Positions 31,551 through 48,621 are shown, counted from the first letter of the stretch. The stretch: DNA of 64,000 bases from Candidatus Micrarchaeota archaeon (GCA_021811435.1 JAJZOR010000003.1:20434-84433), one strand, 5' to 3'. Program-made: numbers and translations. Notes: a model not told the origin generated them from the letters alone.

Positions 31551-32453
31551 TTATTCTCCACCCATAATTTTACTTACACCTTCCTTAACTGAAGTAAATT
31601 TGAATGGGCCGATTGTGCTGAGCAGTTTTCTTGTATCCGCCTTGGTCAGGTATTGATAACTCGATAATGGATTCTTTACATATTTTTTATTATCCTTATT
31701 TATTAAATTTGCAATTTCATTGAAAGCAGTTGCGTTTCCAGTGCCAACATTGTATACCGCGTCTTTGCCTTTTTCAAGCAGCAACAGGATTATTTTTGAC
31801 GCATCATCTACGAATATGTGGTCGCGTGCTTGGCTGCCATCGCCGTATATCACCAATGGCCTGCCAGCTTTATTCTCTCTGATAAAGTTTGTCATTATGC
31901 TAGCGTAGTTTCCTTTATCGTTCTCTCCCGGGCCGAATACATTGACGAAACGCATGCCCACTATATCCATCTTGTAGATGTCCCTGTATGAATCGGCTAT
32001 CATCTCATTAATTAGCTTTGACTTTGCATAGTGATTCCTTTGCTTCTTTATATCTATAATTGAGGTCTCTGAGAAGCCGCTGTCGCTTGTGTATACCGCA
32101 GCACTTGAAGCGTAAAGAACCTTTTCGCAGCCACTTGATACAGCCGCATCTAAAACATTCAGAAATCCGCTTACATTTACCGAATAGCACTTTGCTAAAT
32201 TCTTTTCAAATTCTACGTTCGATGTTATAGCAGCTAGGTGTATCACTTTTTGTACACCTTCTATAGCTTCTTTGACCAAGGTTGAATCTAATATGTCTCC
32301 CTTAATCATTTTTAGGCCTTTGATTTTACAATCCCTGTGATCCAGACCGATAACTTCATAGCCCTCGTCTAATGCGTGGCGTGCGAGGTTTGCACCTATA
32401 AATCCAGAACATCCAGTTATAAGCAGCCTCCTTTTTTGATTTTTTTGCATCAC
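31551..32453 (-). CDS. extended SDR epimerase/dehydratase
   Basis: LLITGCSGFIGANL, YAKSK (YxxxK). Confidence 0.75.
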   Translation of the reverse strand: MMQKNQKRRLLITGCSGFIGANLARHALDEGYEVIGLDHRDCKIKGLKMIKGDILDSTLVKEAIEGVQKVIHLAAITSNVEFEKNLAKCYSVNVSGFLNVLDAAVSSGCEKVLYASSAAVYTSDSGFSETSIIDIKKQRNHYAKSKLINEMIADSYRDIYKMDIVGMRFVNVFGPGENDKGNYASIMTNFIRENKAGRPLVIYGDGSQARDHIFVDDASKIILLLLEKGKDAVYNVGTGNATAFNEIANLINKDNKKYVKNPLSSYQYLTKADTRKLLSTIGPFKFTSVKEGVSKIMGGE

Positions 32454-32474
32454 TTACTTACCCTTATTATACTT

Positions 32475-33467: not shown

Positions 33468-33481
33468 GATGTGCCACTTTG

Positions 33482-34402
33482 CTATTGCCCGTTCAAGAGC
33501 TTCGAAATGCCTTCGTCAAGGCTTATCTTGGCTTTAAATTTGATTAGTTTTTCCGCTTTGGACGTGTCAGCCAGGTTCTCCATCACGTAGTTCTTAGTGG
33601 GCATCTTGACGTATTCAGCCTTTACATCTGTGCCTAGGCTCTTGTTTATCTTGTCTACCAACTCGTTAAGGCTATAGTTCCTTCCGGTACCAACATTGAA
33701 TATGTCGAACCCCTTTATATCTGCTACTTTTATCAGTGCATCAACTACATCGTCTACGAATACAAAGTCGCGCCTTTGCAGCCCATCGCCGTATATCACC
33801 GGCCGCTCGCCCTTTTTAATAGCCCATATGAACTGCGTAACTAGATTGGCGTATTCTTTCTTGGCCTCCTCGTGCCTGCCATAAACCGAGAAGAAGCGCA
33901 TGGCGGCAGCGTTCACCCCGAAAAGCTTCGCATAAAGTTCAGATAGCCTCTCGGCGAGTATCCTGCCTTCCGTATAATAATCGGTCACAGGCGGCACGAT
34001 ACTCTCTTTGTGTGGTGGGGTAATACCGCTGTATATTGATGATGTAGATGCAAAAACCAGGGTGGCTTTGTTTTTCTTCGCGTATTCTAATATGTTTATA
34101 ACGCCCTCTATGACTTCATTCAGGAGGTTAGGGTTTTTCTTGTACATCGGGGATGACGAATACATCCCTAGATGAATTATAAGATCTGCATTAATATTGT
34201 GCTTGGATATGTTCTTTGAATCGTCTTGTATAAATTTGACATTTCCGGTCTTCTGGGCGGCTTCCAGGTTCTTCAAAGAGCCCGTATTTAAGTTGTCTAT
34301 TACGTAAACGTTGTTTTCCGGAGCAAGCCTTTCGACAAGATTGCTGCCTATGAAACCAGCGCCGCCAGTCACTATTATGTTCCTGCCTTTTAAGTTTTCC
34401 AT
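33482..34402 (-). CDS. extended SDR epimerase/dehydratase (HldD-like N-terminus)
   Basis: IIVTGGAGFIGSNLV....VIDNL. The expected YxxxK position reads YTEGR by eye. Confidence 0.7.
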   Translation of the reverse strand: MENLKGRNIIVTGGAGFIGSNLVERLAPENNVYVIDNLNTGSLKNLEAAQKTGNVKFIQDDSKNISKHNINADLIIHLGMYSSSPMYKKNPNLLNEVIEGVINILEYAKKNKATLVFASTSSIYSGITPPHKESIVPPVTDYYTEGRILAERLSELYAKLFGVNAAAMRFFSVYGRHEEAKKEYANLVTQFIWAIKKGERPVIYGDGLQRRDFVFVDDVVDALIKVADIKGFDIFNVGTGRNYSLNELVDKINKSLGTDVKAEYVKMPTKNYVMENLADTSKAEKLIKFKAKISLDEGISKLLNGQ

Positions 34403-34444
34403 ATTTACACCACTAAAAATCCTATATTTTATATGCCATTAGCG

Positions 34445-35002
34445 TCATAGCCTGTCCTCCACTATCTTCGAGAGCATGTGGCCCACAGCTATGTGCACCT
34501 CCTGTATTATGGATGTCCTCGTGCTATCAACTTTAAGTATATATTGCGCTTTATTGGCAAGCTTGCCGCCGCTTTTGCCCGTAAAAACTATAGTCAGGCA
34601 TCCGAGTTCCCTGGCCTTATCAATCGCCCTTATAACGTTTTCCGAATTTCCGCTCGTAGAGATGCCTATCACTATGTCGCCTTCGTGTGCGAACGCCTCA
34701 ATCTGCCTGGAATAGACATGGTCATATCCGTAATCGTTGCTGATTGCCGTCAAAACAGATGTATTTGCGTGCAAGGCCAGGGCAGGCATAGGCCTGCGCT
34801 CCTTTTCGAAACGGCACACGAATTCTGCCGCTATATGCTGCGCATCGGCCGCGCTTCCTCCGTTGCCCATCAATATCAGCTTATTTCCCTTCAGCATCCT
34901 TTTTGCTATCTCTTCACCGAGTGTATAAACGAACTCAGGATCAACTGACAGCCTGGCGTCTGCTCCATCCTTTAGATAATCCTTGATGCTTTTTATATCC
35001 AT
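34445..35002 (-). CDS. gmhA: phosphoheptose (sedoheptulose-7-phosphate) isomerase
   Basis: GNGGSAADAQHIAAEF, NDYGYD.V..RQ, ISTSGNS.N. Confidence 0.85.
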   Translation of the reverse strand: MDIKSIKDYLKDGADARLSVDPEFVYTLGEEIAKRMLKGNKLILMGNGGSAADAQHIAAEFVCRFEKERRPMPALALHANTSVLTAISNDYGYDHVYSRQIEAFAHEGDIVIGISTSGNSENVIRAIDKARELGCLTIVFTGKSGGKLANKAQYILKVDSTRTSIIQEVHIAVGHMLSKIVEDRL

Positions 35003-35052
35003 CGCAAGACCGCTTTTTAAGCCGTTAGAACCGTTATGAATTAAGCAGATTA

Positions 35053-36030
35053 TTATAAATATTTTGTCGCATTTGAATCGCGCACCAGCGTATCTACCGC
35101 ATGCGTCACAACTTCAATCGAATCTGCATACTTTAGCCTTATACCTAACCCTAGCATTTTGGAATTGTCCATGTAGGTATCTGGAACATCGCCAGGCCAT
35201 CCCTCCACCGATCCTGTGTACTTGATTTTTGCGTCTGGCGCAACTCTGCCTGTAACCAACTTCGCTATATCCTTCACGCTGGTCTGGCCATAGGTAGCCA
35301 AGTTCAGTATCATGTCGGGCTCGGCCTTTTCATAAGCCATCAGCATGGCGTTCACGCAGTCAACCACATCTATGTAGGCTTTCCTTTGTTTTCCATTGCC
35401 CAGCACTTCTAATTCCGACATGTTACGCTTCAATTTCCTTATGAAATCGACCATTACGCCGTGCGTCTGGTTATTACCGACAACATTGGCAAACCTGTAT
35501 ATGTAGTATTTAACCCCGTATAGGTTGCCGTAGGCCGTAAGCAGCCCCTCGCACGCTAGCTTTGACGCAGCATACAACGATATAGGCTTCAGCGGCCCGT
35601 AGTTCTCAGGCGTGGGTTTGACTTCAGCCCTGCCATAAACCGCGCTAGAAGAGGAATACATTATTCTGTCAACATCATTAAGCCTTGCGGCTTCGAGGAG
35701 GTTGTGCGTAGCTATTGGACCCTGCTCCATGTCTAAACCTGTGTTTTTTGTGCCTAACTGTATATCTGGGTTGGCAGCAAAATGCACTATGATCCCTGGC
35801 TTTTCCTCTTTTATGGTTTTATTTAGAAGTTTGACATCAAGCAGATCGCCCTTTACAAACCTGAATTTTTTATAGGTTCCAAAGCGCCGTATGAGTTCGA
35901 ATTTTCCTGAGCTTAAATTGTCGTATACGACAAGCCTTGAGGCCCTCCCTATCAGTTGCTCTACCATATTGCTGCCTATGAATCCTGCGCCGCCGGTAAC
36001 AAGGATGCGTTTACCTTCTATCTTGGGCAT
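35053..36030 (-). CDS. extended SDR epimerase/dehydratase
   Basis: ILVTGGAGFIGSNMV, YAASK. Confidence 0.75.
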   Translation of the reverse strand: MPKIEGKRILVTGGAGFIGSNMVEQLIGRASRLVVYDNLSSGKFELIRRFGTYKKFRFVKGDLLDVKLLNKTIKEEKPGIIVHFAANPDIQLGTKNTGLDMEQGPIATHNLLEAARLNDVDRIMYSSSSAVYGRAEVKPTPENYGPLKPISLYAASKLACEGLLTAYGNLYGVKYYIYRFANVVGNNQTHGVMVDFIRKLKRNMSELEVLGNGKQRKAYIDVVDCVNAMLMAYEKAEPDMILNLATYGQTSVKDIAKLVTGRVAPDAKIKYTGSVEGWPGDVPDTYMDNSKMLGLGIRLKYADSIEVVTHAVDTLVRDSNATKYL

Positions 36031-36042
36031 ACCACATACACC

Positions 36043-36576
36043 TTAATTACTTCCAAATCGCTTTGCTTCCTCCCGCTTTATTATGCTGAGAACATCTGAA
36101 AAGTTATCTGCATAAAAATCTGCTTTTCCGCTGCCTGTTTTATTCCTTACTTTTATGCATTTTATTCCTGCATTTCTTGCCATTTCGATGTCTATTTCAG
36201 CATCACCAATGACAAAAGACCTATTTATATCTATGTCAAAATCGCCCTTAGCGTCCTCCAGCAGCCCCAATGCGGGTTTCCTGCACCTGCAGCCGGCAGC
36301 CGGCAGGTGTGGGCAGTAGTATATGGCATCAATCCTGCCGCCTCTTGCGGCTATATCGTGCTTTATTTTTTCATGCATCGATTTTAAGTCATTCTCAGTA
36401 AAATAGCCGCGCCCAACACCGGATTGATTTGTAATTATTATTATGTAATATGTCTTGCTGAGCTCGCTCAAAGGTTTGTATATGTCGTCGTACAGCTTGA
36501 TCTCTGATGCGTTCTTGCAGTAGGGGCAGTCCTTGCTTATAGTGCCATCCCTATCGATGAATAATGCAGGTTTCAT
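36043..36576 (-). CDS. gmhB: D,D-heptose 1,7-bisphosphate phosphatase (HAD, HisB-N-like)
   Basis: FIDRDGT, TNQSGVGRG, CPH...C.CRKP, GD...D. Confidence 0.8.
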   Translation of the reverse strand: MKPALFIDRDGTISKDCPYCKNASEIKLYDDIYKPLSELSKTYYIIIITNQSGVGRGYFTENDLKSMHEKIKHDIAARGGRIDAIYYCPHLPAAGCRCRKPALGLLEDAKGDFDIDINRSFVIGDAEIDIEMARNAGIKCIKVRNKTGSGKADFYADNFSDVLSIIKREEAKRFGSN

Positions 36577-36602
36577 ATTAAATCATCGGTTAGCGTCCTG
36601 GG

Positions 36603-38975
36603 TCATTGCCTTGTTATTGTTATGTTTTGCACCAAGACTAGCTGCTGGCTGCCATTGAAGCTGCGACTTACATTCTGGACGAAGAACAGCGAATTGCCAA
36701 TCGGGCCAGAAAGCAGCGTTACATTAACCACGTACGATTCCATCCCTTGGGCTACGGGTATTTTAGCTATTCTAGTCGGTACGCCTTCTGGGCTGAACGA
36801 GTCGATCGAGAGGCCGGCGTTTCCAAAATTTGTAGTGGCTTCCAGCCTTATGCGCGCGCTTACAGGAGACGGAATCTGCTGGGCATTGTAATTTCCGCCG
36901 GACTGGTTTGCGTACGGCGCCACTACGAATATCTCGCCGTATAAGGCGCTCGCATTTATGGCAGGCGTCCATGGGTACTGGACGGTGTTGTTAACCCGCA
37001 GCTGCATCTGGTGCCACTGGGTCAACATGGGATACGCGACAAAACTCCTATAAGGCCGATATAGGCCACTGGCCGGATTAAGTGTTGCATTTACCGTGGA
37101 AAACACGATTGTCTGGTTATCTGAATAAACGGGATTCCCAAACAGCCCCTGGAGGTAGCTTACTAATGCATATGCAGAAGACTGGCTGTACGCCTTAAGG
37201 TTGACTATGACGAAGGCCGTGTTGTATTCCCTTAAAGACAGTATAGACTCGTTTCCAGGATTTTGGTTAACCGGGGAGGGCAAGAATGCGATTGTGCTAT
37301 TTTGCTCGAGATAAGTTGCGAGTGGTACGATAGGTATGCGGTACAGCGATAATTCCTGTGTCACATTGAACCGCGTCGTATCGCCACCTATTATAGGCTT
37401 ATGGGAAGCAGTAGTATAGTATGTGGCTTGGGCTCCGAATAACCCTGGCTGGCTGGAATAGGGATCGGGCAATATCGGCAACTCCAGCACTGAGAAATTC
37501 CCTGCTATGCTGCTTAGTTGGTTATAAAAGCTCGGAATCGGGGCCGGGGTGGCGACTTGCCGGAGCAGTGAGCCGCTCAGCGCTATGCCGTTGTTCTCGA
37601 TTAGGAAAATCAGCGTGAATACTGCGGCAAGCATGATCACATTGCGCTTACCTTCTCCGCTTGCTTGGAACCTTGAAGCGAGATCATTAAACCCGAACGC
37701 CGCCAGCATCGCTATTGAAACGCTGAATATGAGTTGGAACCTTCCCGGCTCCCTTATGACGCTCAACGGACCTAGCGAATGATAAAGCACGTAAAGGATG
37801 GCTGCGGGCCCCATCGAAAGCAGACCGAATATCACAGCCAGGCCCAGCCACAGCGTGCCCCTAGTGTAGTCCCTGCGCTTGTAATCCGTGTATAGGCCGT
37901 ATAGGATCAATGCTATAGCGCTATAGCCTATGTAAGCCACTGTCTCGGTCGGGTCTGGGCCGAAAACCGAGGTGAAATAAGAGCTTGGGTTGGCATCGAA
38001 TAGGCCATTGTAGTAGCTTGGTATGAGGAAGGAGCCTATGTTCGCACTCCAGATGGAGCTGTAGGTAAGGTTATTCAGCTGATTAGCTTCCGAAAGCCCA
38101 TTTGGCTGCGTTATCACCCCTATAATAGGCAGGAAGCCCCATGAGCCCAGTATGAACGCCACGATTATGGAGAATACCAAGGCAGCCAAGAATCGCCTAT
38201 CCGAAACCTGCTTCCGCGTCTCCCTCATTATGGCGTATGCCACGAGTATGAGCGTTAGAGCAAGTACCAGTTCTATGCCCTGTTCGACATCGCCCATGAA
38301 TATGGCGAGGACGAAAGATGCTGACAGCCCTATAGCGCTGTAAAGCTTGCCGTTTTCGCGTACCATGCGCAAGAAAAAGTATATGGCCAGCGGGATCCAC
38401 TCTATGTTTATCCAGTCTATGTGGGCGTACGCCTGGGCTATGTGGAATGAACTGAAGGCAAAGACGAGGCCGGCCACGAACGCGGCCGTTTTGTTCTTTA
38501 CGATGTAGTCGCTGAGCATGAACATCGTAAGGCCGGACAGAGCGAAGCCTATGAGCAGCATGACGTTATAGGCAAATTGCAAGCTAACCGCCTGGAACGG
38601 CACAGAGATTAGCGATGCTATTGGCGCCATGGTCTGGTAGACCAGGCTTGAGCCTATTGGCCAATAAAGCAGATTAGTGTAGTAGAAACTCGTATGCAGC
38701 GTGAACGTCGCGTATCCGACCCACCATATGTCCCACAGGTTCTGGAACGTGTCCCCGCCGGAGCCCGGTGCTAGCGCCGTTATATTGCTCGTCACCGGGG
38801 CCAGCACCACTGCTGCGATTAGCGCATAAATGGCGAAAAGCGCTATGCCGAGCCTGAGATTGTGGTTCCAGAGCAGGCTTTGTAATCTATTTTTTGTTTT
38901 AGCTCCTTTATTTTGGGACGCATCATCGATCTTATCTGGTGCGCTTGATTGCCCTACTTGATCGAAAACCATCAA
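36603..38975 (-). CDS. large polytopic membrane protein, probable GT-C-type glycosyltransferase
   Basis: 790 aa with more than 10 TM helices and a large external C-terminal domain. The first loop carries GGDTFQNLWDIWWVGY. It has no WWDYG-type OST motif. Confidence 0.5.
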   Translation of the reverse strand: MMVFDQVGQSSAPDKIDDASQNKGAKTKNRLQSLLWNHNLRLGIALFAIYALIAAVVLAPVTSNITALAPGSGGDTFQNLWDIWWVGYATFTLHTSFYYTNLLYWPIGSSLVYQTMAPIASLISVPFQAVSLQFAYNVMLLIGFALSGLTMFMLSDYIVKNKTAAFVAGLVFAFSSFHIAQAYAHIDWINIEWIPLAIYFFLRMVRENGKLYSAIGLSASFVLAIFMGDVEQGIELVLALTLILVAYAIMRETRKQVSDRRFLAALVFSIIVAFILGSWGFLPIIGVITQPNGLSEANQLNNLTYSSIWSANIGSFLIPSYYNGLFDANPSSYFTSVFGPDPTETVAYIGYSAIALILYGLYTDYKRRDYTRGTLWLGLAVIFGLLSMGPAAILYVLYHSLGPLSVIREPGRFQLIFSVSIAMLAAFGFNDLASRFQASGEGKRNVIMLAAVFTLIFLIENNGIALSGSLLRQVATPAPIPSFYNQLSSIAGNFSVLELPILPDPYSSQPGLFGAQATYYTTASHKPIIGGDTTRFNVTQELSLYRIPIVPLATYLEQNSTIAFLPSPVNQNPGNESILSLREYNTAFVIVNLKAYSQSSAYALVSYLQGLFGNPVYSDNQTIVFSTVNATLNPASGLYRPYRSFVAYPMLTQWHQMQLRVNNTVQYPWTPAINASALYGEIFVVAPYANQSGGNYNAQQIPSPVSARIRLEATTNFGNAGLSIDSFSPEGVPTRIAKIPVAQGMESYVVNVTLLSGPIGNSLFFVQNVSRSFNGSQQLVLVQNITITRQ

Positions 38976-39147
38976 TAACGCACCGGCAAAAAGTGAATCG
39001 GGATTTCAATTACTATTTGGGACAAAGGATAAATAACAGTTACGCTTAGATTCAACTTGGTATCTATACCTATAAGCAGTAGACTGCATTTCTGCATAAC
39101 AGTTTTAAACTCTTACTGGCATATTATGTCCTGATGCCGGTGTATCA

Positions 39148-40128
39148 ATGATTATAGTACGAAGCCCATTGCGCATTTCTCTTGGAGGGGGCGGCACAGA
39201 CCTGCCATCTTACTACTCAAACTACGAGGGCTTTTTGGTCGCGGCTGCTATAGACAAATACGTGTATATAACTGTGCATAAGGCATTCGAGAAAGAGATC
39301 ATACTCAAATACTCAAACATGGAGCATGTGCAATCAATCGAAGAAGTGCAGCACCCAATAATCAGGGAGGCGCTAAGACTGGTAAACATAGAGAATCCGC
39401 ACCTTGAGATAACAAGCTTGGCCGATGTACCGTCAGGCACAGGACTGGGCTCCTCTGGCAGCTTCACATGCGCGCTGTTAAAGGCGCTGCATACTTACAA
39501 GAAGGAAATCGTGCTCAACAAGGATATAGCGGAGGAGGCATGTCACATAGAGATTGATGTCCTAAAGGAACCGATAGGCAAGCAGGATCAATATATATCC
39601 GCATTCGGCGGCATAAATGCCTTAAAATTCCACAAAAACGGCAGGGTTGAGGCAGCGCCGCTAAAGCTATCAGACGAGACTCTGTACAGCCTTGAGGATA
39701 ACCTGCTACTGTTCTTTACGGGCTTCTCCAGATCCGCATCTGAGGTCCTTAAGGAGCAGGATACCAAAAGCCGGGAGAATGACAAATCGATGATCGAGAA
39801 CCTACATTTCATCAAGGATCTGGGTCTAAAGAGCAAGAACGCCCTTGAAACGGGTGACCTTGATAAGTTTGCAGAGCTGATGAACATACATTGGGAGTAC
39901 AAGAAGCAGCGCTCTAGCCTGATGAGCAATGTCAGGATAAACGCGCTGTACGACATAGCTATGAAAAACGGCGCTCTGGGGGGTAAGCTGATAGGTGCCG
40001 GCGGGGGAGGATTCCTTATGTTCTACACGAACGAGAATGTGAGGCTGCGGCGCGCCATGGGGCGCGAAGGGCTAAGGGAGATACCGTTCAACTTCGACTT
40101 TGAGGGCACAAAGGTGATGGCGCAGTGA
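39148..40128 (+). CDS. hddA: GHMP sugar kinase, D-glycero-D-manno-heptose-7-phosphate kinase-like
   Basis: PLRISLGGGGTDL, GLGSSGS, GKQDQY, GAGGGGF. Confidence 0.75.
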   Translation: MIIVRSPLRISLGGGGTDLPSYYSNYEGFLVAAAIDKYVYITVHKAFEKEIILKYSNMEHVQSIEEVQHPIIREALRLVNIENPHLEITSLADVPSGTGLGSSGSFTCALLKALHTYKKEIVLNKDIAEEACHIEIDVLKEPIGKQDQYISAFGGINALKFHKNGRVEAAPLKLSDETLYSLEDNLLLFFTGFSRSASEVLKEQDTKSRENDKSMIENLHFIKDLGLKSKNALETGDLDKFAELMNIHWEYKKQRSSLMSNVRINALYDIAMKNGALGGKLIGAGGGGFLMFYTNENVRLRRAMGREGLREIPFNFDFEGTKVMAQ

Positions 40129-40835
40129 ATATGCCACCAGTCGCAATAGTTGCGGGTGGCCTGGCGACCAGATTGCACCCGACTACGCTCAAGATTCCTA
40201 AGTCCATGATTGAGGTGGCAGGCAAACCTTTTATATACCACCAGCTGTCCCTACTTAAACGCAGGGGCGCATCAGATGTGCTTCTCTGCATCGGTAACCT
40301 AGGATCCGAGATACAGGATTATGTAGGGGATGGCAAAGCATGGGGGCTAAGGGTCCGGTACTCCTACGACGGCGAAAAGCTGCTTGGAACCGGAGGCGCG
40401 ATAAAGAAGGCCCTGGATAAGCTTCCGGATGCGTTTTTCGTGCTGTATGGCGATTCCTATTTGGACGTAGATATGGAGCCCATATTGGAGCGGTTTATCG
40501 GCTCAGGAAAACAGGCAATCATGACCATTTACCACAACAGGAACAAGCTGGATAAGAGCAACGTTGTATTCAAGGATGGCAAGATACTTAGATACGGCAA
40601 GGTTCAGATCCCTGAGATGGAATACATTGACTACGGCCTTAGCATCTTGAGCAAGCGCGTATTCGACGCATGGCCGGCGGACACCGCGTTTGACTTGGCC
40701 GACGTGTATGGGAGGCTGGTAAACACAGGGGAGATGGCAGCGTTTGAAGTGAGCCGGCGATTCTACGAGATTGGCTCAAAGAGCGGCATAAACGAGCTGG
40801 AGAGGCATATGGCCTCGGTCGGTATGGAATGCTGA
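40125..40835 (+). CDS. hddC: sugar-1-phosphate nucleotidyltransferase, heptose-1-phosphate guanylyltransferase-like
   Basis: VAGGLATRL....PK.M, GTGGA, YGDSY. Overlaps hddA by 4 nt. Confidence 0.7.
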   Translation: MNMPPVAIVAGGLATRLHPTTLKIPKSMIEVAGKPFIYHQLSLLKRRGASDVLLCIGNLGSEIQDYVGDGKAWGLRVRYSYDGEKLLGTGGAIKKALDKLPDAFFVLYGDSYLDVDMEPILERFIGSGKQAIMTIYHNRNKLDKSNVVFKDGKILRYGKVQIPEMEYIDYGLSILSKRVFDAWPADTAFDLADVYGRLVNTGEMAAFEVSRRFYEIGSKSGINELERHMASVGMEC

Positions 40836-40949
40836 CTAACTCCTGCGCCCAAACCTGCATTTTGATGTTATCGTGCTCCTTTCTACGCCTAAGTTAAGAT
40901 TTTAAACCCTCACTGAGAAGGTTTATGCAAGCGCAAATGCAGTGATGAT

Positions 40950-41555
40950 ATGGGGGACGAGGCGTATATACAGGGTTATCTTGAGGACTGTGCCGAGATC
41001 GCTAATAAGCTCGATAGGGCACAGATATTGAAGATGTCAAAGATGCTGATAGACATAAGGTCAAGGCAGGGGAGGCTCTTCATATTGGGAGTCGGGGGCG
41101 GAGCGGGCCATGCCTCGCATGCAGTGAACGACTTCAGGAAGATAGCAGGCATCGAGGCGTATACACCTACAGATAACGTCTCCGAGCTAACCGCCAGGGT
41201 AAACGATGACGGGTGGGAGACAGTGTTTGTGAATTGGCTCAGAGGCAGCAGGCTTAACAGGAAGGACGGTGTGCTAGTATTCTCCGTAGGGGGGGGCAAC
41301 GAGGAGAAGAAGATCAGCGTTAATCTTGTTATGGCGCTAAGATACGCTAAGGATGTGGGTGCAAGCATAATGGGCGTTGTTGGAAGGGATGGCGGCTACA
41401 CTGCAAAAGTTGCGGATGCATGCGTTATAGTGCCTACGGTTAACGCAGAAACCGTTACGCCACACACAGAAGGCTTCCAGGCCGTGATCTGGCATCTGTT
41501 GGTCTCCAGCCCAGAAATGAAAAAATTCGAGATGAAATGGGAGAGCACGAAGTGA
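40950..41555 (+). CDS. gmhA: SIS-domain sugar-phosphate isomerase (GmhA-like)
   Basis: LFILGVGGGAGHASHAVNDF and VFSVGGGN. It is diverged from the 34445-35002 copy. Confidence 0.65.
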   Translation: MGDEAYIQGYLEDCAEIANKLDRAQILKMSKMLIDIRSRQGRLFILGVGGGAGHASHAVNDFRKIAGIEAYTPTDNVSELTARVNDDGWETVFVNWLRGSRLNRKDGVLVFSVGGGNEEKKISVNLVMALRYAKDVGASIMGVVGRDGGYTAKVADACVIVPTVNAETVTPHTEGFQAVIWHLLVSSPEMKKFEMKWESTK

Positions 41556-42154
41556 GCGCGAAGCAGGCAAGAAAAGCCGTTTTCCTAGACAGGGACGGCG
41601 TGCTTGACGCTTTAGTGCTAAATAAGGCCACAAACGAGTATGAGGCGCCGCATAGCGTTGGAGAACTGAAACTACTGCCCATGGTTATACCAGGGCTTAA
41701 AAGACTGCAGGCAGCAGGATACGAACTCTTCCTTGTCTCTAACCAGCCGGATTACGCCAAAGGAAAATCAACGCTAGCGGAACTGAAGCTGGTGCACAGC
41801 AGATTTGACAGGCTAATGAAGGACCATGGGGTGCATTTTAGGCAGTATTATTATTGCTTCCACCATCCGCAGGGCGTGGTACCGCGTTATTCCTATGAGT
41901 GCGAATGCAGGAAACCTAAGCCGTTCTTCCTGATTAAGGCAGGGGAAGCATACGGATTGAACCTGGCGGCTTCGTGGATGGTTGGCGACACAGACAAGGA
42001 CGTGGGATGCGGCAAGGATGCTGGAGTAAATACCATACTTGTGGGGTATAAGCTGTCAGTGAAACAGAGGGTGGACAGCGTACCGGATTACAGGGCAAAG
42101 AACTTAAATGAAGCAGTTGATATAATAATAAAGCATTCGAAAACTGGTGGATAG
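41537..42154 (+). CDS. gmhB: D,D-heptose 1,7-bisphosphate phosphatase-like HAD hydrolase
   Basis: FLDRDGV, SNQPDYAKG, C.HHP...C.CRKP, GDTDKD. Confidence 0.75.
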   Translation: MGEHEVSAKQARKAVFLDRDGVLDALVLNKATNEYEAPHSVGELKLLPMVIPGLKRLQAAGYELFLVSNQPDYAKGKSTLAELKLVHSRFDRLMKDHGVHFRQYYYCFHHPQGVVPRYSYECECRKPKPFFLIKAGEAYGLNLAASWMVGDTDKDVGCGKDAGVNTILVGYKLSVKQRVDSVPDYRAKNLNEAVDIIIKHSKTGG

Positions 42155-42871
42155 ATGGATGGGAACAGGAAATTCAGGATAAAGCTTTTCGCAGACGGCG
42201 CCGACATCAACGACATGATGGCGGTCTATAAGCAAGGCCTAGTTAGCGGGTTCACTACAAACCCAAGCCTCATGAGGAAAGCTGGGGTCAGGGACTACGA
42301 GCGCTTCGCTAAGGAGGTGCTTAAAGACATACGGGATATGCCGATATCGTTTGAGGTATTCGCTGACGATTTTGCGGACATGGAGAGGGAGGCCAGGAAG
42401 ATAGCGAGCTGGGGCAACAATGTATACGTTAAGATACCGGTGACCAATACGAGGGGCGAGAGCGCAGTGGAACTGATAAAAAAGCTGTCATGGGACGGGC
42501 TAAAATTGAATGTCACTGCCATATTGAATGCGGAACAGGTACAAGCAGTATCAGAGGCCCTGGCGCCTTCAGTCCCCAGCATAGTGTCTGTGTTCGCGGG
42601 GCGCATAGCGGATACTGGCAGGGATCCCATACCCATAATGAAGGAATCGCTAGGTATATTGAAGCATAATCCTAAAGCAGAACTGCTCTGGGCGAGTTCA
42701 AGGGAACTCTTCAATGTAGTACAGGCAGAAATGTCTGGTTGCCATATAATAACTGTAACCAATGAGATACTCAAAAAAATACCTATGGTGGGCAAGGACC
42801 TGAAGGAACTGTCGCTTGACACTGTGAAGATGTTCCATTCCGATGCTGCGGCAGCCGGATATAGTATCTGA
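42155..42871 (+). CDS. tal: transaldolase / fructose-6-phosphate aldolase family (short type)
   Basis: LFADGAD...GFTTNPSL and VKIP.T. Starts on the base after the gmhB stop. Confidence 0.8.
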   Translation: MDGNRKFRIKLFADGADINDMMAVYKQGLVSGFTTNPSLMRKAGVRDYERFAKEVLKDIRDMPISFEVFADDFADMEREARKIASWGNNVYVKIPVTNTRGESAVELIKKLSWDGLKLNVTAILNAEQVQAVSEALAPSVPSIVSVFAGRIADTGRDPIPIMKESLGILKHNPKAELLWASSRELFNVVQAEMSGCHIITVTNEILKKIPMVGKDLKELSLDTVKMFHSDAAAAGYSI

Positions 42872-42967: not shown

Positions 42968-43813
42968 TTACGCGATACGGTAATTCAGGCCTATTAGCAA
43001 TGATACTATGCCTGCCGCTTCAACGAACATGACGTTGTTTGACATGCCGCCGCCAAATACGGCTATGGCCAAGCCCGTTATCACAAGTGCTATGCCAAGC
43101 AGCCCGAAAGTCATGAAAGAGACGTAGTAGTTGGAGCATACCAAAAGGCGCCTGGCCATCTTGAAGCCAAAAAGGAATTTTGACTTGGCCACTTTGGACT
43201 TTCCATAGCTCCTCTTGTAGTAGTTTATGGGCACCTCTGCGACCCTGTATCCCCTCTTGGCAAGTTCGATCTGGAAGAACATATGCTGCATCTTGAAAGG
43301 CGGATGGACATCCTTTACTGCATCGTATGCCTTCCTGTCCACTACGAATAATCCAGTAAGCACATCATGCACATGCTGTTTAAAAAATATGTTGTACATG
43401 GCGGTAAGCATCCAATTGCCTATGAACAGGTGGGAATCCATGGATCCCTCTTGCAGGCTAGCCATCCTATTACCTAGCACCAAATCCGCCTTACCGCCCT
43501 TTATGGCGTTTAGGCCAAGAGCTAACCCTTCCGGGTCGTGGGTACCGTCCGCGTCTATCGTGGATAGGGTGACGCCATTTGCCTGAGAGAACGCTTCAAG
43601 TATGCCGTTCTCAATCCCGTGGGATTTCTGCCTTATCGCCCGGACTCCGGTCGCCTTAAGTTTATTGTAGTATTCGTCGCCGCTTTCGTCTATCACGATT
43701 ATCTCGGCCCTAGAGCCGAATTTTCCCTTGAGCTTCTCTATAAGCGAGAACGCCCCCTCTTCCTCCTTTGTAGGCAGGACTATGCTTATTTCGGGCTTTT
43801 TTGTGTTTTTCAT
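42968..43813 (-). CDS. GT2 dolichyl-phosphate hexose synthase-like (Dpm1-like) with C-terminal TM helices
   Basis: ISIVLPTKEE, IVIDESGD, DADGTHDP. Confidence 0.75.
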   Translation of the reverse strand: MKNTKKPEISIVLPTKEEEGAFSLIEKLKGKFGSRAEIIVIDESGDEYYNKLKATGVRAIRQKSHGIENGILEAFSQANGVTLSTIDADGTHDPEGLALGLNAIKGGKADLVLGNRMASLQEGSMDSHLFIGNWMLTAMYNIFFKQHVHDVLTGLFVVDRKAYDAVKDVHPPFKMQHMFFQIELAKRGYRVAEVPINYYKRSYGKSKVAKSKFLFGFKMARRLLVCSNYYVSFMTFGLLGIALVITGLAIAVFGGGMSNNVMFVEAAGIVSLLIGLNYRIA

Positions 43814-44757
43814 AGCTTCATCAGTCTCTTTGCCTTATCTAATATGCTGGCCTCTGAGATACCGTACTTTACCATCAGCTCAGCATCCTGACCGGATTCG
43901 CCAAATACGTCGTTGACTGCCACCATGTCCATTATGGTTGGACGGCGCGTTGAAAGCACTTCGGCGACAGCGGAACCAAGACCGCCCATGATGTTGTGAT
44001 CCTCAGCGGTTATTATCCTGCCCGTGTCTTTGGCCGCGCTTATTATGGTACCAGCATCAATTGGCTTTATTGTGTGGCAGTCTATCACCCTTGCGCTTAT
44101 GCCGTCTTTCTGCAACCTTTCGGCGGCTTTTAATGACTCTTGAACCATTATGCCGCAAGCTATTATGGCCAAATCATTGCCGTCCCTGAGCACGTTTGCC
44201 TTGCCCACCTTAATGCCCTCATTCGCGTATATGTTAGTCAGGTTGGGCCTTGGAAGCCTTATGTAAAATGGACCCTTGGTATTTACCGCTTCCCTGACGA
44301 TTGCCCTTGTTGCGTACGCATCGGACGGCACAACAACCCTCATGTTGGGCAATGCGCGCATGATCGCTATGTCCTCAATGTCCTGATGGCTTCCACCATC
44401 AGGGCCGACGGATATTCCCGTATGCGTGCCTACTATCTTAACGTCGAGATTGCAGTAAGCTATGGTATTGCGTATCTGGTCTATTGCTCGCTCTATGAAT
44501 ACCATGTAAGTTCCGCATACGACGGTCTTGCCGTACAATGCCAGCCCGGCAGAGATGCCTATCATGTTCTGCTCAGCTATCCCTACGTTGAAGAACCTGT
44601 CGGGAAACTTGTCGCCGAAAAGGCTGGTGCGTATAGACTCTGTGGTATCGGCGCCGACAACTACTAGGTTAGGCACATTTGAGCCAAGCTCCTCGAGTGC
44701 CTGGCCGAACGCTTCCCTTAGTGATTCTGATTTCTGTTCCATTTTAAGCACCGCCAT
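43810..44757 (-). CDS. transketolase, C-terminal (pyrimidine-binding) subunit
   Basis: FNVGIAEQNM, GPDGGSHQ..EDIA. Split-gene arrangement. Confidence 0.9.
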   Translation of the reverse strand: MAVLKMEQKSESLREAFGQALEELGSNVPNLVVVGADTTESIRTSLFGDKFPDRFFNVGIAEQNMIGISAGLALYGKTVVCGTYMVFIERAIDQIRNTIAYCNLDVKIVGTHTGISVGPDGGSHQDIEDIAIMRALPNMRVVVPSDAYATRAIVREAVNTKGPFYIRLPRPNLTNIYANEGIKVGKANVLRDGNDLAIIACGIMVQESLKAAERLQKDGISARVIDCHTIKPIDAGTIISAAKDTGRIITAEDHNIMGGLGSAVAEVLSTRRPTIMDMVAVNDVFGESGQDAELMVKYGISEASILDKAKRLMKL

Positions 44758-45619
44758 TTGCGCTGCCTTTTACCGAAGCTATCGCTTTTTCAAGCAGCTC
44801 TTTGGTGAGGACTTTGCTGTGGTATTCGACTTTCTCCTCCATGAAATCCACGCCCTTGCCCTTTTTCGTTTTTGCTACTATGACGGTAGGCAGCCCTTTG
44901 GCCTTCTCGGCCTCCCCCAACGCCCTTAGCATGTCGGATATGTCGTTGCCATCAGCCTCCATCACGTTCCAATTGAACGCCCTGAACTTGGCAGCCACAG
45001 GATCCGTAGGCATTATCTGTGACGTGGTGCCTTCCTGCTGCAGCCCATTTTTGTCAACTATCGCTACGAGGTTATCTAGCCTGAACTTCACTGCAGCCAT
45101 CGCAGCCTCCCACACCTCGCCTTCGTCTAGTTCGCCGTCCCCAGTAATGACGTATACCTTAATAGGCTTATTGTCAATCCTCGCGGCAAGGGCCATGCCT
45201 ATGCCTTCAGAAAGGCCTATGCCTTCAGGGCCGCCAGGTATCTCAACGCCAGGTACTTTGTTAGGATCTGGATGTCCCTGCAGCCGGCTGTTTATTTTTC
45301 TAAGCGTCAACAACTCCTCTTTAGGGAAGTAACCGCATTGGGAGAGGACAGAATAAAGGGCCGGAGCCGCATGTCCTTTTGAAAGCAGCAATCTGTCCCT
45401 TTCAGGCCACTTTGGACTCTTCGGATCATGGCGCATCTTGCCAAAATAAATCGACACGAGTATGTCCGTGCAGCTAAGCGAACCTCCCGGATGGCCCGAT
45501 TTTGCTTCGCTGAGCATAGTTAGTATGTTTTCCCTTATGTCTGCAGCTATGGTCTTTAGTTCTTCTACGTTCACATGCCTATTTGGATCCCTGAAATCTA
45601 TTTCCACCACTTGAATCAC
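44744..45619 (-). CDS. transketolase, N-terminal (TPP-binding) subunit
   Basis: GHPGGSLS, LSKGHA, GDGELDEGEVWEA. Confidence 0.9.
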   Translation of the reverse strand: MIQVVEIDFRDPNRHVNVEELKTIAADIRENILTMLSEAKSGHPGGSLSCTDILVSIYFGKMRHDPKSPKWPERDRLLLSKGHAAPALYSVLSQCGYFPKEELLTLRKINSRLQGHPDPNKVPGVEIPGGPEGIGLSEGIGMALAARIDNKPIKVYVITGDGELDEGEVWEAAMAAVKFRLDNLVAIVDKNGLQQEGTTSQIMPTDPVAAKFRAFNWNVMEADGNDISDMLRALGEAEKAKGLPTVIVAKTKKGKGVDFMEEKVEYHSKVLTKELLEKAIASVKGSANGGA

Positions 45620-45620
45620 C

Positions 45621-46310
45621 TTATTTTGCGCCCGTTATGCGCATCTTTAATGTGTAAAATGCTATTTTAATACCTAGCAGCGGCTTTGACTTAGTTACCT
45701 GAGGCTTTGAGCCTTGCCGCTCAGTATAAGTTATTGGGATTTCCTTTATTCTCTGGCCGTGCAGCGCCAGCGCAGCTTCGAAGAATAGCGTGCCGGCCCT
45801 GTTGCTGCCAGGCTTTACGCTTCTGATCGAATCGAAAGCGGACCTTCGCATCACGAACGAACCGCTCAGCGCATCGTGCATCCTCTGCTTATAGAGCGTG
45901 TTAAAAAGAAACGTCAGGAATTTGTTACCGAACCTCAGATACGAGCCGATTGCATCCTTGTTGCTGGATCTGTCACCACTGATGAAGTCAGCATCCCCGA
46001 TTTCTAGGGTTTCGACTACCTTTTTGAAATCATCAACGCTATAAGTGCCATCAGGGTCTATTGTGGATATTATATCGCCGTGGGCAGCAAGGAAGCCCTC
46101 CATCAAGGCTGCGGTATACCCTTTGGATTTCTGCTCTATTATTTTCGCTCCCGTGGCATATAGAGGTTCGCGCAGTTTTGGCTCGCTCTTGTCTACAATT
46201 ATTATTTCGATGTCTTTCCCGAGTTTGGAATAAAGCTCGTTTATCACGCGTGGAGCGGTCGCTTCATTTTTAGTCGGAACTATTATACTCAGTCCTGGCA
46301 TACAGCTCAC
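45621..46310 (-). CDS. GT2 dolichyl-phosphate hexose synthase-like glycosyltransferase
   Basis: LSIIVPTKNE, IIIVDKS, DPDGTYS. Confidence 0.75.
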   Translation of the reverse strand: MSCMPGLSIIVPTKNEATAPRVINELYSKLGKDIEIIIVDKSEPKLREPLYATGAKIIEQKSKGYTAALMEGFLAAHGDIISTIDPDGTYSVDDFKKVVETLEIGDADFISGDRSSNKDAIGSYLRFGNKFLTFLFNTLYKQRMHDALSGSFVMRRSAFDSIRSVKPGSNRAGTLFFEAALALHGQRIKEIPITYTERQGSKPQVTKSKPLLGIKIAFYTLKMRITGAK

Positions 46311-47904: not shown

Positions 47905-48621
47905 ATGGAAAACAAAGGAGAAAACATGGAAACTACGCGTGCCTACAAATTCAGGATATATCCTGATATAAATAGACAGACAGCCATAGAAGATTCAATT
48001 TCAACGTCTCAAAGGCTATACAACATGCTTCTTGAGAAGACCATAGAAGCGCATAAATCGAATCCGTCATCAAAAATATCGCAGAGGACCATAAATCAGT
48101 TCCTCAATGAAATAATAAAAGAGGACAAGACCTATCTGCAACTCTATGCCAACGTCAGAGTGGACATCCGCAACAGACTCTTGAAGACCTACCGAAACTT
48201 CTTCAGGAGATGCCAGCAAAAGAAATATAGGCTTGCCCAGTCAATCCAGAACGCTTCATTGAACAGGTCCATCAATATGCTCTCATACAAGGCTGAAAGC
48301 GCCGGTATTGAGGTGATAAAGGTGGACGCAGGGGACACGACGCTGGAATGCAGCAACTGCCATTACATAAAGAATTGGGGGGAGAGGCTGAACCTGGAAG
48401 ACAGGATTTACCACTGCAACAGATGCGGCATGCAGTTGGACATGGACATAAACGCATCCATAAACATACTCAACAGGGCTACCCTCGAACGGAGGGGAAG
48501 TCACGCTCATGGAGAGGACGCAAGACCTCAAAGGAAGGCAGTCCTCGTTGAACTGAGAACATACCCTGCAAACACAGGGGAAGCCAACGAACTTTATCCG
48601 TTGGAGGATGTCATACGATGA
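47905..48621 (+). CDS. tnpB: TnpB-like protein with an in-frame internal deletion (lacks the RuvC-I/RuvC-II region)
   Basis: The N-terminus TRAYKFRIYPD...TYRNFFRR joins directly to LAQSIQNASLNRSINMLSYKAESAGIEVIKVD, then CSNC...CNRCG zinc ribbon and DMDINASINILN (RuvC-III). It is 238 aa, against about 350-450 aa for typical TnpB. Confidence 0.75.
   Translation: MENKGENMETTRAYKFRIYPDINRQTAIEDSISTSQRLYNMLLEKTIEAHKSNPSSKISQRTINQFLNEIIKEDKTYLQLYANVRVDIRNRLLKTYRNFFRRCQQKKYRLAQSIQNASLNRSINMLSYKAESAGIEVIKVDAGDTTLECSNCHYIKNWGERLNLEDRIYHCNRCGMQLDMDINASINILNRATLERRGSHAHGEDARPQRKAVLVELRTYPANTGEANELYPLEDVIR

Follow-up and report, generated by a model that had tools for sequence, protein, structure and literature searches.

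A five-gene sugar-activation cassette with a hard-wired transaldolase has been identified in the genome of a Candidatus Micrarchaeota archaeon, in a stretch of 64,000 nucleotides referred to here as the window. The five genes constitute one conserved module that is encountered from archaea to Rhizobium. The product of the module is probably a nucleotide-activated sugar of eight carbons (or an unusual one of seven) and not ordinary GDP-manno-heptose. On the best explanation of the data, the transaldolase catalyses the first committed step of the route and is no housekeeping neighbour, and the product serves the surrounding glycan island. We give an even chance to the more specific proposal, modelled on lincosamide biosynthesis, that the transaldolase makes a committed ketose phosphate, probably octulose-8-phosphate, which would then be activated as NDP-octose.

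Gene organisation of the cassette

The cassette comprises the following features.

39103-39110, plus strand: TATA-like box TTTTAAAC, putative promoter of the kinase-nucleotidyltransferase unit, 38 nt 5' of the kinase ATG (assigned by position only)
39148-40128, plus strand: GHMP sugar-phosphate 1-kinase (HddA/WcbL/LmbP-like), 326 aa; Pfam PF00288 (GHMP_kinases_N) and PF08544 (GHMP_kinases_C)
40125-40835, plus strand: sugar-1-phosphate nucleotidyltransferase (MurU/HddC/LmbO-like), 236 aa, GTG start; PF00483 NTP_transferase
40900-40907, plus strand: TATA-like box TTTTAAAC, putative promoter of the SIS-HAD-Tal unit, 42 nt 5' of the SIS ATG, inside the 114-nt gap
40950-41555, plus strand: SIS-A, divergent GmhA-fold ketose/aldose phosphate isomerase, 201 aa; SIS_2, weak match (E 2.5e-4)
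41537-42154, plus strand: HAD-IIIA sugar-bisphosphate terminal phosphatase (GmhB/LmbK-like), 205 aa; HAD-IIIA models, FLDRDG and C.H...C.C zinc loop
42155-42871, plus strand: transaldolase (Tal), TIGR02134 family, 238 aa; TAL_FSA (E 1.5e-44)

The five ORFs are real genes and not chance ORFs, since identical overlaps recur in orthologous loci: the kinase and nucleotidyltransferase genes overlap by 4 nt both in the window and in locus L001, and the SIS and HAD genes by 19 nt both in the window and in L003. The ATG of the transaldolase directly abuts the TAG of the phosphatase at the window junction 42154/42155. A first-pass annotation of this DNA had given the exact positions of the five ORFs, of the overlaps between them and of the TAG-ATG junction, and had noticed the TATA-like box in the 114-nt gap; its superfamily assignments for the five genes have been confirmed by Pfam and NCBIfam profile searches. 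The octamer TTTTAAAC occurs four times in the 64 kb, an overall count no higher than chance, and two of the four copies are at the promoter position of the two cassette units. Two Thermoplasmatota loci (L092 and L093) carry the two units in the opposite relative order, which fits two separable units, kinase-nucleotidyltransferase and SIS-HAD-Tal.

Genomic neighbourhood

The cassette sits in an archaeal glycan island, in agreement with the surface-glycan setting proposed earlier. Two other operons of the island are relevant.

31551-38975, minus strand: set B, a second, canonical heptose-type operon encoding a 790-aa membrane protein, GmhB, an SDR, GmhA, an HldD-like SDR, an HddA-like kinase and an SDR (profile matches)
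42968-46310, minus strand: convergent operon with an AglJ/Dol-P-hexose-transferase-like GT2, a split transketolase and a second GT2; possibly linked, no general cassette member
43810-44757, minus strand: TktC of the split transketolase
44744-45619, minus strand: TktN of the split transketolase

Set B, overlooked in the first-pass annotation, is a more canonical GmhA/GmhB/HddA-like/HldD-like set than the cassette, and its GmhA scores 186 bits in NCBIfam. It is divergent from the cassette kinase gene across a 172-nt spacer, lies 3-7 kb from the cassette genes on the other strand and includes three SDR epimerase/reductase genes, one of them HldD-like. Set B has no nucleotidyltransferase of its own, and no second one was detected by tblastn within the 64-kb window.

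The single nucleotidyltransferase, the divergent arrangement and the three SDR genes would suit a scheme in which the two sets are halves of one heptose system. Set B would borrow the nucleotidyltransferase of the cassette, the transaldolase and transketolase would feed both, and the duplicated enzymes would give two differently configured heptoses. We consider this scheme unlikely. L092, L093, a Lawsonia plasmid (L084) and a Rhizobium chromid (L085) have the five-gene module and no set B, so that the module is self-sufficient; the universal coupling of SIS-A with the transaldolase would also be left unexplained.

No homologs of GFO, UDPG-dehydrogenase or adh_short have been found within the 64-kb window, which thus holds the five-gene core only, as do L092 and L093.

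Conservation of the module

All three transaldolase-homolog loci that were looked up first have these five genes in identical order, and across orthologous loci each of the five proteins shares 56-79% identity with its window counterpart. The wider sample comprises 80 metagenome loci found with SIS-A, of which 16 "long" loci extend 3 kb or more in each direction. Gene order varies, with at least four arrangements among the 80. The kinase is present in all 16 long loci, and the transaldolase and the HAD phosphatase in 15 each. Two transaldolase subfamilies adjoin SIS-A, one TIGR02134-like (45 loci) and one FSA/TalC-like of about 228 aa (8 loci). A Tal::SIS-A fusion protein (P0184, with Pfam TAL_FSA and SIS_2) occurs once and has been verified on contig L086, and fusions of the NTase-SIS, HAD-SIS and SIS-HAD types are numerous in the SIS-A family. 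A Tal::SIS protein would be no less expected with a transaldolase that supplies sedoheptulose-7-phosphate to the isomerase.

Archaeal carriers include Methanoperedens, Thermoplasmatota and Pacearchaeota. Bacterial carriers with the transaldolase include the Rhizobium jaguaris chromid and Lawsonia intracellularis plasmid 3, and a Gram-negative capsule locus (L064, with Wzi and Bac_transf) also carries the module with the transaldolase. In many relatives the module is directly preceded by accessory genes for an epimerase, a dehydrogenase of the UDPG/GDP-Man type and a Gfo/Idh/MocA protein, often also an SDR; among the long loci the epimerase is found in 14 and GFO in 10 of the 16, and accessory genes are present in L001, L003, L084 and L085 as well.

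Rhizobium is expected to make sedoheptulose-7-phosphate via its own pentose phosphate pathway. Plain precursor supply, the role earlier ascribed to the transaldolase, is a weak explanation because the SIS-A/transaldolase linkage holds even in such bacteria.

A distinct subfamily of SIS isomerases

SIS-A represents a distinct, highly conserved subfamily that is not GmhA and has the transaldolase linkage as its hallmark. The family comprises 387 representative clusters at E≤1e-30. The window protein shares 73-79% identity with SIS-A orthologs and 23% with the GmhA encoded elsewhere in the window, the range for SIS-A against GmhA being 23-27%. The GmhA hallmarks considered are the Glu/His catalytic pair, the His-Glu-Gln-His metal site and the S-T-S-G-x-S phosphate loop. 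In the alignment to GmhA, SIS-A keeps His57 and His182, Glu is replaced by Asp61 and Gln by Glu174, and the phosphate loop reads SVGGGN with an insertion of about 5-6 residues. SIS-A thus departs from GmhA in equivalog score, metal site and phosphate loop. The AF2 model of SIS-A (pLDDT 72.6) has its best structural matches in GmhA, with a TM-score of about 0.65. Besides the window, L029, L038, L051, L056, L065 and L079 also contain both SIS-A and a canonical GmhA.

Relationship to the heptose pathway

NCBIfam equivalog cutoffs, expressed in bits, served as reference thresholds. The best NCBIfam match of the kinase is NF049969 HddA (190 bits against a cutoff of 600), and its PDB matches are 3k85, 4usk and 4n3o (E about 1e-48; HddA/WcbL). 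The kinase shares 69-73% identity with its orthologs in other cassettes and 40% with its set-B counterpart. Because LmbP has this family type too, the HddA score does not separate C7 from C8 substrates. The nucleotidyltransferase scores 83 bits with NF049965 HddC (cutoff 300), and matches to MurU (109 bits, below its cutoff) and archaeal GlmU (84 bits) are as high or higher; its PDB matches are MurU (4y7t/8hhd) and HddC (6jq8/5xhw). The phosphatase exceeds the cutoffs of the HAD-IIIA domain models TIGR01656 (113 bits, cutoff 84) and TIGR01662 (81 bits, cutoff 45) and falls below those of the GmhB models PRK08942 (113 against 178) and TIGR00213 (98 against 150). Its translation contains the DRDG motif and C.H...C.C loop, and it is 25% identical to the set-B GmhB. 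SIS-A scores 49 bits with TIGR00441 GmhA (cutoff 209).

No equivalog-level match to GmhA, HddA, GmhB or HddC has therefore been obtained in NCBIfam for the four window enzymes. The profile searches suggested by the first-pass annotation uphold its superfamilies, with scores for the specific enzymes below the cutoffs (190/600, 83/300, 49/209 and 113/178 for HddA, HddC, GmhA and GmhB), and its claim of a complete GDP-D-glycero-alpha-D-manno-heptose pathway finds no support in that form, with none of four enzymes at the cutoff and HddC outscored by MurU.

The GDP-D-glycero-alpha-D-manno-heptose pathway of Aneurinibacillus thermoaerophilus, Campylobacter jejuni, Yersinia and Burkholderia has the same four superfamilies as the cassette and follows the same logic of isomerisation, 1-phosphorylation, removal of the terminal phosphate and nucleotidylation. 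Its enzymes are the best structural relatives of the cassette kinase and isomerase. Unlike this pathway, the cassette has an obligatory transaldolase and an isomerase with Asp/Glu in place of the Glu/Gln ligands and a rebuilt phosphate loop, and a more canonical copy of the pathway, set B, lies beside it in the same island.

A heptose pathway with built-in precursor supply, in essence the view of the first-pass annotation, is nevertheless the main alternative to the octose reading, though a less likely one. The transaldolase, with transketolase, would provide sedoheptulose-7-phosphate, SIS-A would convert it to heptose-7-phosphate, and the kinase, phosphatase and nucleotidyltransferase would yield an NDP-D-glycero-heptose. 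The divergence of SIS-A would then reflect a different outcome at C2, gluco and not manno, and a 4-epimerase could give the D-glycero-D-galacto-heptose of Thermoplasma. The best family and structure matches (GmhA, HddA/WcbL, GmhB, HddC) agree with this scheme, as do the generic nature of the transaldolase with its full set of catalytic residues, the presence in L064 of a gene of the heptosyltransferase family GT9 close to the cassette, and the split transketolase that adjoins the cassette in the window, L003, L006 and L038; a Micrarchaeota-type DPANN host may have no pentose phosphate pathway of its own. The closest named relatives of the cassette are from Thermoplasmatota, and heptose is documented in Thermoplasmatales N-glycans: that of Thermoplasma acidophilum contains D-glycero-D-galacto-heptose (PMC12448462), so that heptose is less of a novelty in archaeal surface glycans than had been assumed.

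Several observations weigh against such a pathway. All four enzymes are far under the equivalog cutoffs, and the cassette would be redundant with the separate canonical GmhA/GmhB/kinase/HldD-like set that this island and several related loci also contain. The transaldolase is kept in 15 of the 16 long loci and in Rhizobium, where sedoheptulose-7-phosphate should exist, but the split transketolase is found in only one of the 16. To our knowledge, the characterised heptose clusters of Aneurinibacillus, Campylobacter, Yersinia and Burkholderia contain no transaldolase, and we know of no role on heptoses for the LmbL/LmbZ-type pair encoded in relatives of the module.

The transaldolase

The window transaldolase scores 363 bits with TIGR02134, above the cutoff of 282. 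In an alignment with the transaldolases of Thermoplasma and Thermotoga (3s0c, 1vpx), its Asp14, Glu67, Lys93, Thr121, Phe147 and Arg183 fall at the catalytic positions; it has the Schiff-base Lys, the Asp and Glu, and Phe rather than the Tyr of F6P-aldolase. It resembles in these respects the pentose-phosphate transaldolases of the Staphylococcus/Coxiella type and shares 55% identity with that of S. aureus. The cassette-linked transaldolases do not form a clade apart from the housekeeping transaldolases of S. aureus, Lactobacillus and Treponema. The latter type stands alone or beside sugar-uptake genes, whereas the window enzyme and many of its relatives are tied to sugar-activation enzymes by translational coupling and, in one case, by fusion.

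In S. aureus, Lactobacillus and Treponema, TIGR02134 members serve outside glycan contexts; this, together with the adjacent transketolase genes, could suggest an ordinary pentose-phosphate enzyme located near sugar-activation genes by chance. This is highly improbable and is contradicted by the conservation data, namely a SIS-A linkage that spans archaea and bacteria, several gene orders, two transaldolase subfamilies and a fusion, and by the start that abuts the phosphatase stop. The transaldolase is hence a functional part of the unit, as the first-pass annotation had supposed.

Similarity to the lincosamide octose pathway

The module contains the same set of gene families as the lincosamide octose pathway (LmbR/N/P/K/O), and the product may therefore be an octose. 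By analogy to LmbR, the transaldolase would transfer the C3 dihydroxyacetone unit of fructose-6-phosphate (or sedoheptulose-7-phosphate) to ribose-5-phosphate, giving octulose-8-phosphate. SIS-A would isomerise this to octose-8-phosphate (cf. LmbN), the GHMP kinase would phosphorylate C1 (cf. LmbP), the HAD-IIIA phosphatase would take off the terminal phosphate (cf. LmbK) and the nucleotidyltransferase would form NDP-octose (cf. LmbO), which glycosyltransferases of the island would then consume. We infer the acceptor to be R5P rather than E4P, hence C8 and not C7; any choice of C2 configuration, nucleotide and recipient glycan would likewise be an extrapolation.

The analysis establishes the enzyme families, intact catalytic residues, close cross-domain co-conservation, fusions and a lincosamide-like gene content. 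In favour of the octose route are the conservation of the module, the transaldolase linkage in different gene orders and with two subfamilies, the fusions, the occurrence in bacteria, the distinctness of SIS-A from GmhA, the accessory genes of relatives and the protein lengths. Against it count the best matches of the kinase, phosphatase and isomerase, which are heptose-pathway enzymes (as are those of the nucleotidyltransferase after MurU), the absence of a separate cassette-transaldolase clade, a window transaldolase that is not of the short LmbR/CcbR type, and a window without LmbL/LmbZ-like genes. The adjoining split transketolase, suited to sedoheptulose-7-phosphate supply in a probably reduced DPANN-like host, also speaks against an octose. 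The literature searched contained no report of a prokaryotic surface glycan with a linear aldo-octose; heptoses are well documented in such glycans, Thermoplasma included.

The comparison of the two systems is one of gene families and protein lengths. In both, the transaldolase is an integral member: in the module it is co-inherited in 15 of the 16 long loci, in several orders, as two subfamilies, as a fusion and with an abutting start. All five families have lengths similar to those of CcbR/N/P/K/O, the Ccb proteins being of 202 (N), 185 (K), 323 (P), 232 (O), 325 (M), 436 (L) and 222 (R) aa (PMC4351081, Table DS1-1). LmbM, LmbL and LmbZ, which process GDP-octose, belong to the same families as the epimerase, nucleotide-sugar dehydrogenase and Gfo/Idh/MocA genes of module relatives; these partners are absent from the window and present in many relatives (L001, L003, L084, L085).

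The lincosamide genes form an antibiotic cluster, whereas the cassette is part of an archaeal surface-glycan island. The window transaldolase is of the 238-aa TIGR02134 type in contrast to the short CcbR/LmbR type (CcbR, 222 aa). Unlike the lincosamide pathway, the module has no aminotransferase, its relatives carrying a short-chain reductase instead, it has no carrier-protein fusion, and the window is without an L/Z-like pair. Primer-derived Lmb/Ccb patterns gave no match in the genome contigs scanned.

CcbR is closest to a Cellulomonas transaldolase (PMC4351081), and its length is close to that of the FSA/TalC-like cassette transaldolases of about 228 aa. As of 2015, the closest non-lincosamide relatives of the Ccb proteins were from Acidobacteria, Sorangium and Methanosarcina, and the best outside match of CcbN was a Sorangium "sugar phosphatase" and not a GmhA (PMC4351081). 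"Sugar phosphatase" is how SIS-HAD fusions get annotated.

The five-gene cassette

The cassette belongs to a widespread sugar-activation module that is led by a transaldolase and is as yet uncharacterised; a conventional heptose set is encoded beside it. The five open reading frames have the coordinates given in the first-pass annotation, and profile searches have confirmed the superfamilies proposed there:

39148-40128 (+), GHMP kinase, assigned by family profile search
40125-40835 (+), nucleotidyltransferase (NTP_transferase), assigned by family profile search
40950-41555 (+), SIS isomerase, a weak match (SIS_2, E-value 2.5e-4)
41537-42154 (+), HAD-IIIA phosphatase, assigned by family profile, with a DRDG motif and a cysteine/histidine zinc loop
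42155-42871 (+), transaldolase (PF00923, E-value 1.5e-44; TIGR02134, 363 bits against a cutoff of 282)

A 4-nt overlap joins the kinase gene to the nucleotidyltransferase gene and one of 19 nt joins the SIS gene to the HAD gene, and the TAG of the phosphatase gene is followed by the ATG of the transaldolase gene with no base between them. The TATA-like octamer TTTTAAAC is located 38 nt upstream of the kinase start and 42 nt upstream of the SIS start. With 4 copies only it is not enriched over the whole window and is suggestive by position alone, from which two archaeal promoters are plausible.

Family membership of the cassette enzymes

The evidence does not establish these genes as a complete GDP-D-glycero-alpha-D-manno-heptose pathway, and this earlier description is probably incorrect in its details: none of the four enzymes concerned reaches its NCBIfam equivalog cutoff. 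The kinase scores 190 bits (HddA cutoff 600), the nucleotidyltransferase 83 bits (HddC cutoff 300; the MurU model scores higher), the isomerase 49 bits (GmhA cutoff 209) and the phosphatase 113 bits (GmhB cutoff 178). Their nearest solved structures are those of heptose enzymes, next to MurU in the case of the nucleotidyltransferase. A heptose route, in which the transaldolase would supply sedoheptulose-7-phosphate to the cassette isomerase, is regarded as possible though less likely than not, and the top matches of the cassette enzymes, which are heptose enzymes, speak for it.

The cassette isomerase, labelled 'D-sedoheptulose 7-phosphate isomerase' in databases at present, belongs to a subfamily referred to here as SIS-A. 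Both histidines of the GmhA metal/catalytic site are retained, a glutamate is replaced by aspartate (Asp61) and a glutamine by glutamate (Glu174), and the phosphate-binding loop is rebuilt as SVGGGN with an insertion of about 5-6 residues. The AlphaFold model is of moderate confidence (pLDDT 72.6) and is best matched by GmhA structures (TM about 0.65).

In the transaldolase the catalytic residues, among them the Schiff-base lysine, are present, with a Phe and not a Tyr; Phe is typical of transaldolases and Tyr of fructose-6-phosphate aldolases. The enzyme is 55% identical to the TIGR02134 enzyme of S. aureus. A separate clade of cassette-linked transaldolases was considered and rejected, as these are not separated from housekeeping copies. 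Since they form no clade of their own, no sequence signature for acceptor specificity is available, and such a generic TIGR02134 member, phylogenetically not apart from housekeeping copies, counts in favour of the heptose route.

Conservation and gene order

Homologs of the transaldolase number in the thousands at about 70% identity. The order kinase-nucleotidyltransferase-SIS-HAD-transaldolase was identical in all three of the first homologs looked up (Methanoperedens and two other contigs), where the five genes are preceded by an epimerase, (a nucleotide-sugar dehydrogenase,) a short-chain reductase and a Gfo/Idh/MocA protein. In these loci the five proteins are 56-79% identical to those of the window, SIS-A being the most conserved. 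An exhaustive HMMER search places 387 representative clusters in SIS-A at E<=1e-30. A metagenome scan with the SIS-A alignment gave 272 relatives, and the 80 loci retained for synteny show at least 4 gene orders. Co-occurrence was counted in the 16 loci that have flanks of 3 kb or more on each side:

Co-occurrence of gene families with SIS-A in the 16 long loci
Kinase, 16/16
Transaldolase, 15/16
HAD phosphatase, 15/16
Epimerase, 14/16
Nucleotidyltransferase, 11/16
Gfo, 10/16
Reductase, 7/16
Dehydrogenase, 6/16
Canonical GmhA, 3/16
Transketolase, 1/16

In 8 loci the transaldolase beside SIS-A is of an FSA/TalC-like type of about 228 residues, only about 30% identical to that of the window. Two Thermoplasmatota loci have the five genes only, in the order SIS-HAD-transaldolase-kinase-nucleotidyltransferase; the two sub-units are exchanged compared with the window, in line with two transcription units that can be separated.

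Fusions of SIS-A are many (nucleotidyltransferase-SIS, HAD-SIS and SIS-HAD), and a fusion to transaldolase was found once. This natural transaldolase-SIS-A protein of 449 residues (L086, 8001-9350), confirmed on its contig, is encoded in a bacterial polysaccharide locus along with an epimerase, nucleotidyltransferase, GHMP kinase, SDR, Gfo, HAD and Bac_transf initiating transferase. Another candidate, P0174, was rejected as a SIS-transaldolase fusion, being a probable frameshift artefact, and the extra length of two SIS-A representatives of 285-287 residues was put down to N-terminal artefacts or nucleotidyltransferase remnants.

The link of the transaldolase to the cassette, proposed earlier from the window, is real and much stronger than could then be known, given the conservation, the shuffled orders and the fusion. 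Chance adjacency of the transaldolase to pentose-phosphate genes is rejected on the conservation data. Fusion and synteny show that the transaldolase feeds the isomerase, without specifying the substrate.

Three low-GC loci (L056, 3164-5033; L065, 1850-3710; L079, 813-2065) encode SIS-A followed directly by a short FSA/TalC-type transaldolase and then by a GmhA-like second isomerase, so that a single gene run holds two different isomerases and a transaldolase. The same transaldolase family also occurs on Lactobacillus plasmids (L090, 2998-6329; L091, 2986-6298) behind a LacI regulator and ahead of a mannose-type PTS, a catabolic context that is unrelated to the cassette.

Carriers of the module and the host

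Named carriers include Methanoperedens, Thermoplasmatota, Pacearchaeota, 'Euryarchaeota', Gaiella (Actinomycetota) and Berkelbacteria. The full nine-gene set is encoded in two cultured bacteria, Rhizobium jaguaris, on a chromid and in the Methanoperedens order, and Lawsonia intracellularis, on plasmid 3. The Lawsonia genes are annotated as SIS protein, HAD-IIIA hydrolase, transaldolase, nucleotide sugar dehydrogenase, SDR, Gfo/Idh/MocA, 'galactokinase' and nucleotidyltransferase. In L064 the module is found in a Gram-negative capsule locus that also encodes Wzi, Bac_transf and a GT9.

The host of the window is an archaeon. Its class II LysRS (59611-61029, -) has its closest named relatives in Micrarchaeota and Marsarchaeota MAGs (65-69%), whereas the nearest named relatives of the cassette are Thermoplasmatota and Methanoperedens, which hints at a DPANN host with gene exchange with Thermoplasmatota.

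Comparison with the lincosamide octose route

To our knowledge, the octose route of the lincosamide antibiotics is the only characterised sugar-nucleotide pathway with an integral transaldolase. GDP-octose is formed in it by the transaldolase LmbR, the C8 isomerase LmbN, the kinase LmbP, the phosphatase LmbK and the guanylyltransferase LmbO, and is then processed by LmbM (epimerase), LmbL (dehydrogenase), LmbZ (oxidoreductase) and LmbS (aminotransferase) (PMC4351081, PMC12945683). The five enzyme families are the same as those of the window module and the M, L and Z families are also found in its relatives, which differ in having a reductase in place of the aminotransferase. Lengths of the Ccb proteins agree with those of the module proteins, the likeness being one of family and length. 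According to Wang et al. 2020, the LmbL/LmbZ pair reportedly carries out a 6,8-dehydration for which a three-carbon side chain is needed, and we know of no role of such a pair on heptoses.

The module is best filed as a variant of either a lincosamide-type octose route or a heptose route. We give the octose reading an even chance. It is argued for by the recruitment of the transaldolase from two subfamilies and by the LmbL/LmbZ-type pair with no known heptose role. Two further points favour it and also count against the heptose route, namely that the transaldolase is almost always present, even in bacteria that should already have sedoheptulose-7-phosphate, and that the isomerase forms a subfamily distinct from the canonical GmhA beside which it often occurs. 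For the heptose route it can be said that D-glycero-D-galacto-heptose is known in the Thermoplasma N-glycan, which a gluco-forming isomerase acting on sedoheptulose-7-phosphate, followed by a 4-epimerase, would neatly yield, and that no aldo-octose in a surface glycan was found in the literature searched, which held nothing relevant on octose in glycans or on the gene combination of the cassette.

In the octose reading the pathway would start with the formation of octulose-8-phosphate by the transaldolase. Its broader form, to which we give somewhat less than an even chance, is a widespread and so far unrecognised pathway to NDP-octoses for archaeal and bacterial surface glycans, with 8-deoxy-octoses where dehydrogenase, Gfo and SDR genes are present and with the lincosamide octose genes as a specialised offshoot of what would be a cassette of primary metabolism.

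In 2015 the nearest non-lincosamide relatives were from Acidobacteria for CcbK, CcbO and CcbZ, from Sorangium for CcbN and CcbP, the CcbN match being named 'sugar phosphatase', and from Methanosarcina mazei for CcbM (PMC4351081). SIS-HAD fusions carry the same name. These relatives are as would be expected, indirectly, if the antibiotic genes derive from the widespread cassette. Patterns derived from lmb primers (PMC4351081 Table S1) gave no match in the genome contigs, LmbN was not seen among the 150 best SIS-A representatives by primer-deduced peptide fragments and a carrier-protein motif, and the cluster members looked up included the names Gaiella and Berkelbacteria only, with no Sorangium, Solibacter or Acidobacterium accessions.

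If the octose reading is true, eight-carbon aldoses, which we know today essentially only from lincosamide antibiotics, would join the prokaryotic surface-glycan repertoire, thousands of genes now called sedoheptulose-7-phosphate isomerase, galactokinase or pentose-phosphate transaldolase would have to be re-annotated, and the evolutionary origin of the sugar genes of lincomycin would be clarified. If the heptose route is true, it would be a second, transaldolase-coupled one with a new isomerase subfamily, and might account for the D-glycero-D-galacto-heptose in glycans of Thermoplasmatales, which is so far unexplained.

The second heptose-type operon and the glycan island

The cassette is part of a glycan island, overlooked in the first-pass annotation, that extends from about 12 to 46 kb of the window and encodes GT1, GT2, GT4, RmlC, RmlD, FkbM methyltransferases, a Wzx-type flippase and an AglH-like GT4, with a cis-prenyltransferase further upstream. 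The features nearest to the cassette are:

31551-38975 (-), second canonical heptose-type operon (set B), divergent from the kinase gene
36603-38975 (-), membrane protein of 790 residues heading set B, rich in hydrophobic stretches
set B (-), GmhB (PRK08942, 154 bits)
set B (-), canonical GmhA (TIGR00441, 186 bits) with complete catalytic residues
set B (-), HldD-like SDR (TIGR02197, 151 bits)
set B (-), HddA-like kinase, assigned by family profile
set B (-), further SDRs, one listed between GmhB and GmhA and one listed last
44744-45619 and 43810-44757 (-), split transketolase, downstream of the transaldolase gene and convergent with it

Set B has no nucleotidyltransferase, the sole one of the 64-kb window being that of the cassette (40125-40835). 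Identity between the two sets is 40% for the kinases, 23% for the isomerases and 25% for the phosphatases.

That a transketolase adjoins the cassette in the window, in a host that may lack a pentose phosphate pathway of its own, is a further point for the heptose route. Two GT2 genes similar to AglJ/Dol-P-hexose transferases flank the split transketolase, and the region 42968-46310 (-) looks like a single operon from its abutting or overlapping gene ends. Co-transcription of central-metabolism genes with lipid-carrier glycosyltransferases would be unusual.

Three large predicted proteins have no Pfam or NCBIfam match (36603-38975, 790 residues; 13781-16132, 783 residues; 12227-13762, 511 residues; all -), the first of which is possibly a transferase or polymerase of GT-C type. 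GC is low (34-42%; 46-53% elsewhere) in the stretch 12000-32000, which matches the part of the island rich in glycosyltransferases and includes a DDE_3 transposase (17850-18890), suggesting its horizontal acquisition. A member of the 'reversibly glycosylated polypeptide' family is encoded at 27538-28641 (-) (PF03214, E-value 5e-22). Archaeal glycan islands are an unusual place for this family, which is mostly known from plant UDP-arabinopyranose mutases. The reading frame at 47905-48621 (+), with CxxC zinc-finger-like motifs read from the translation alone, might be a TnpB/IS605-OrfB-like fragment. An exosortase/archaeosortase-family protein (PF09721) is encoded near the island at 57027-58631 (+), consistent with surface-protein processing.
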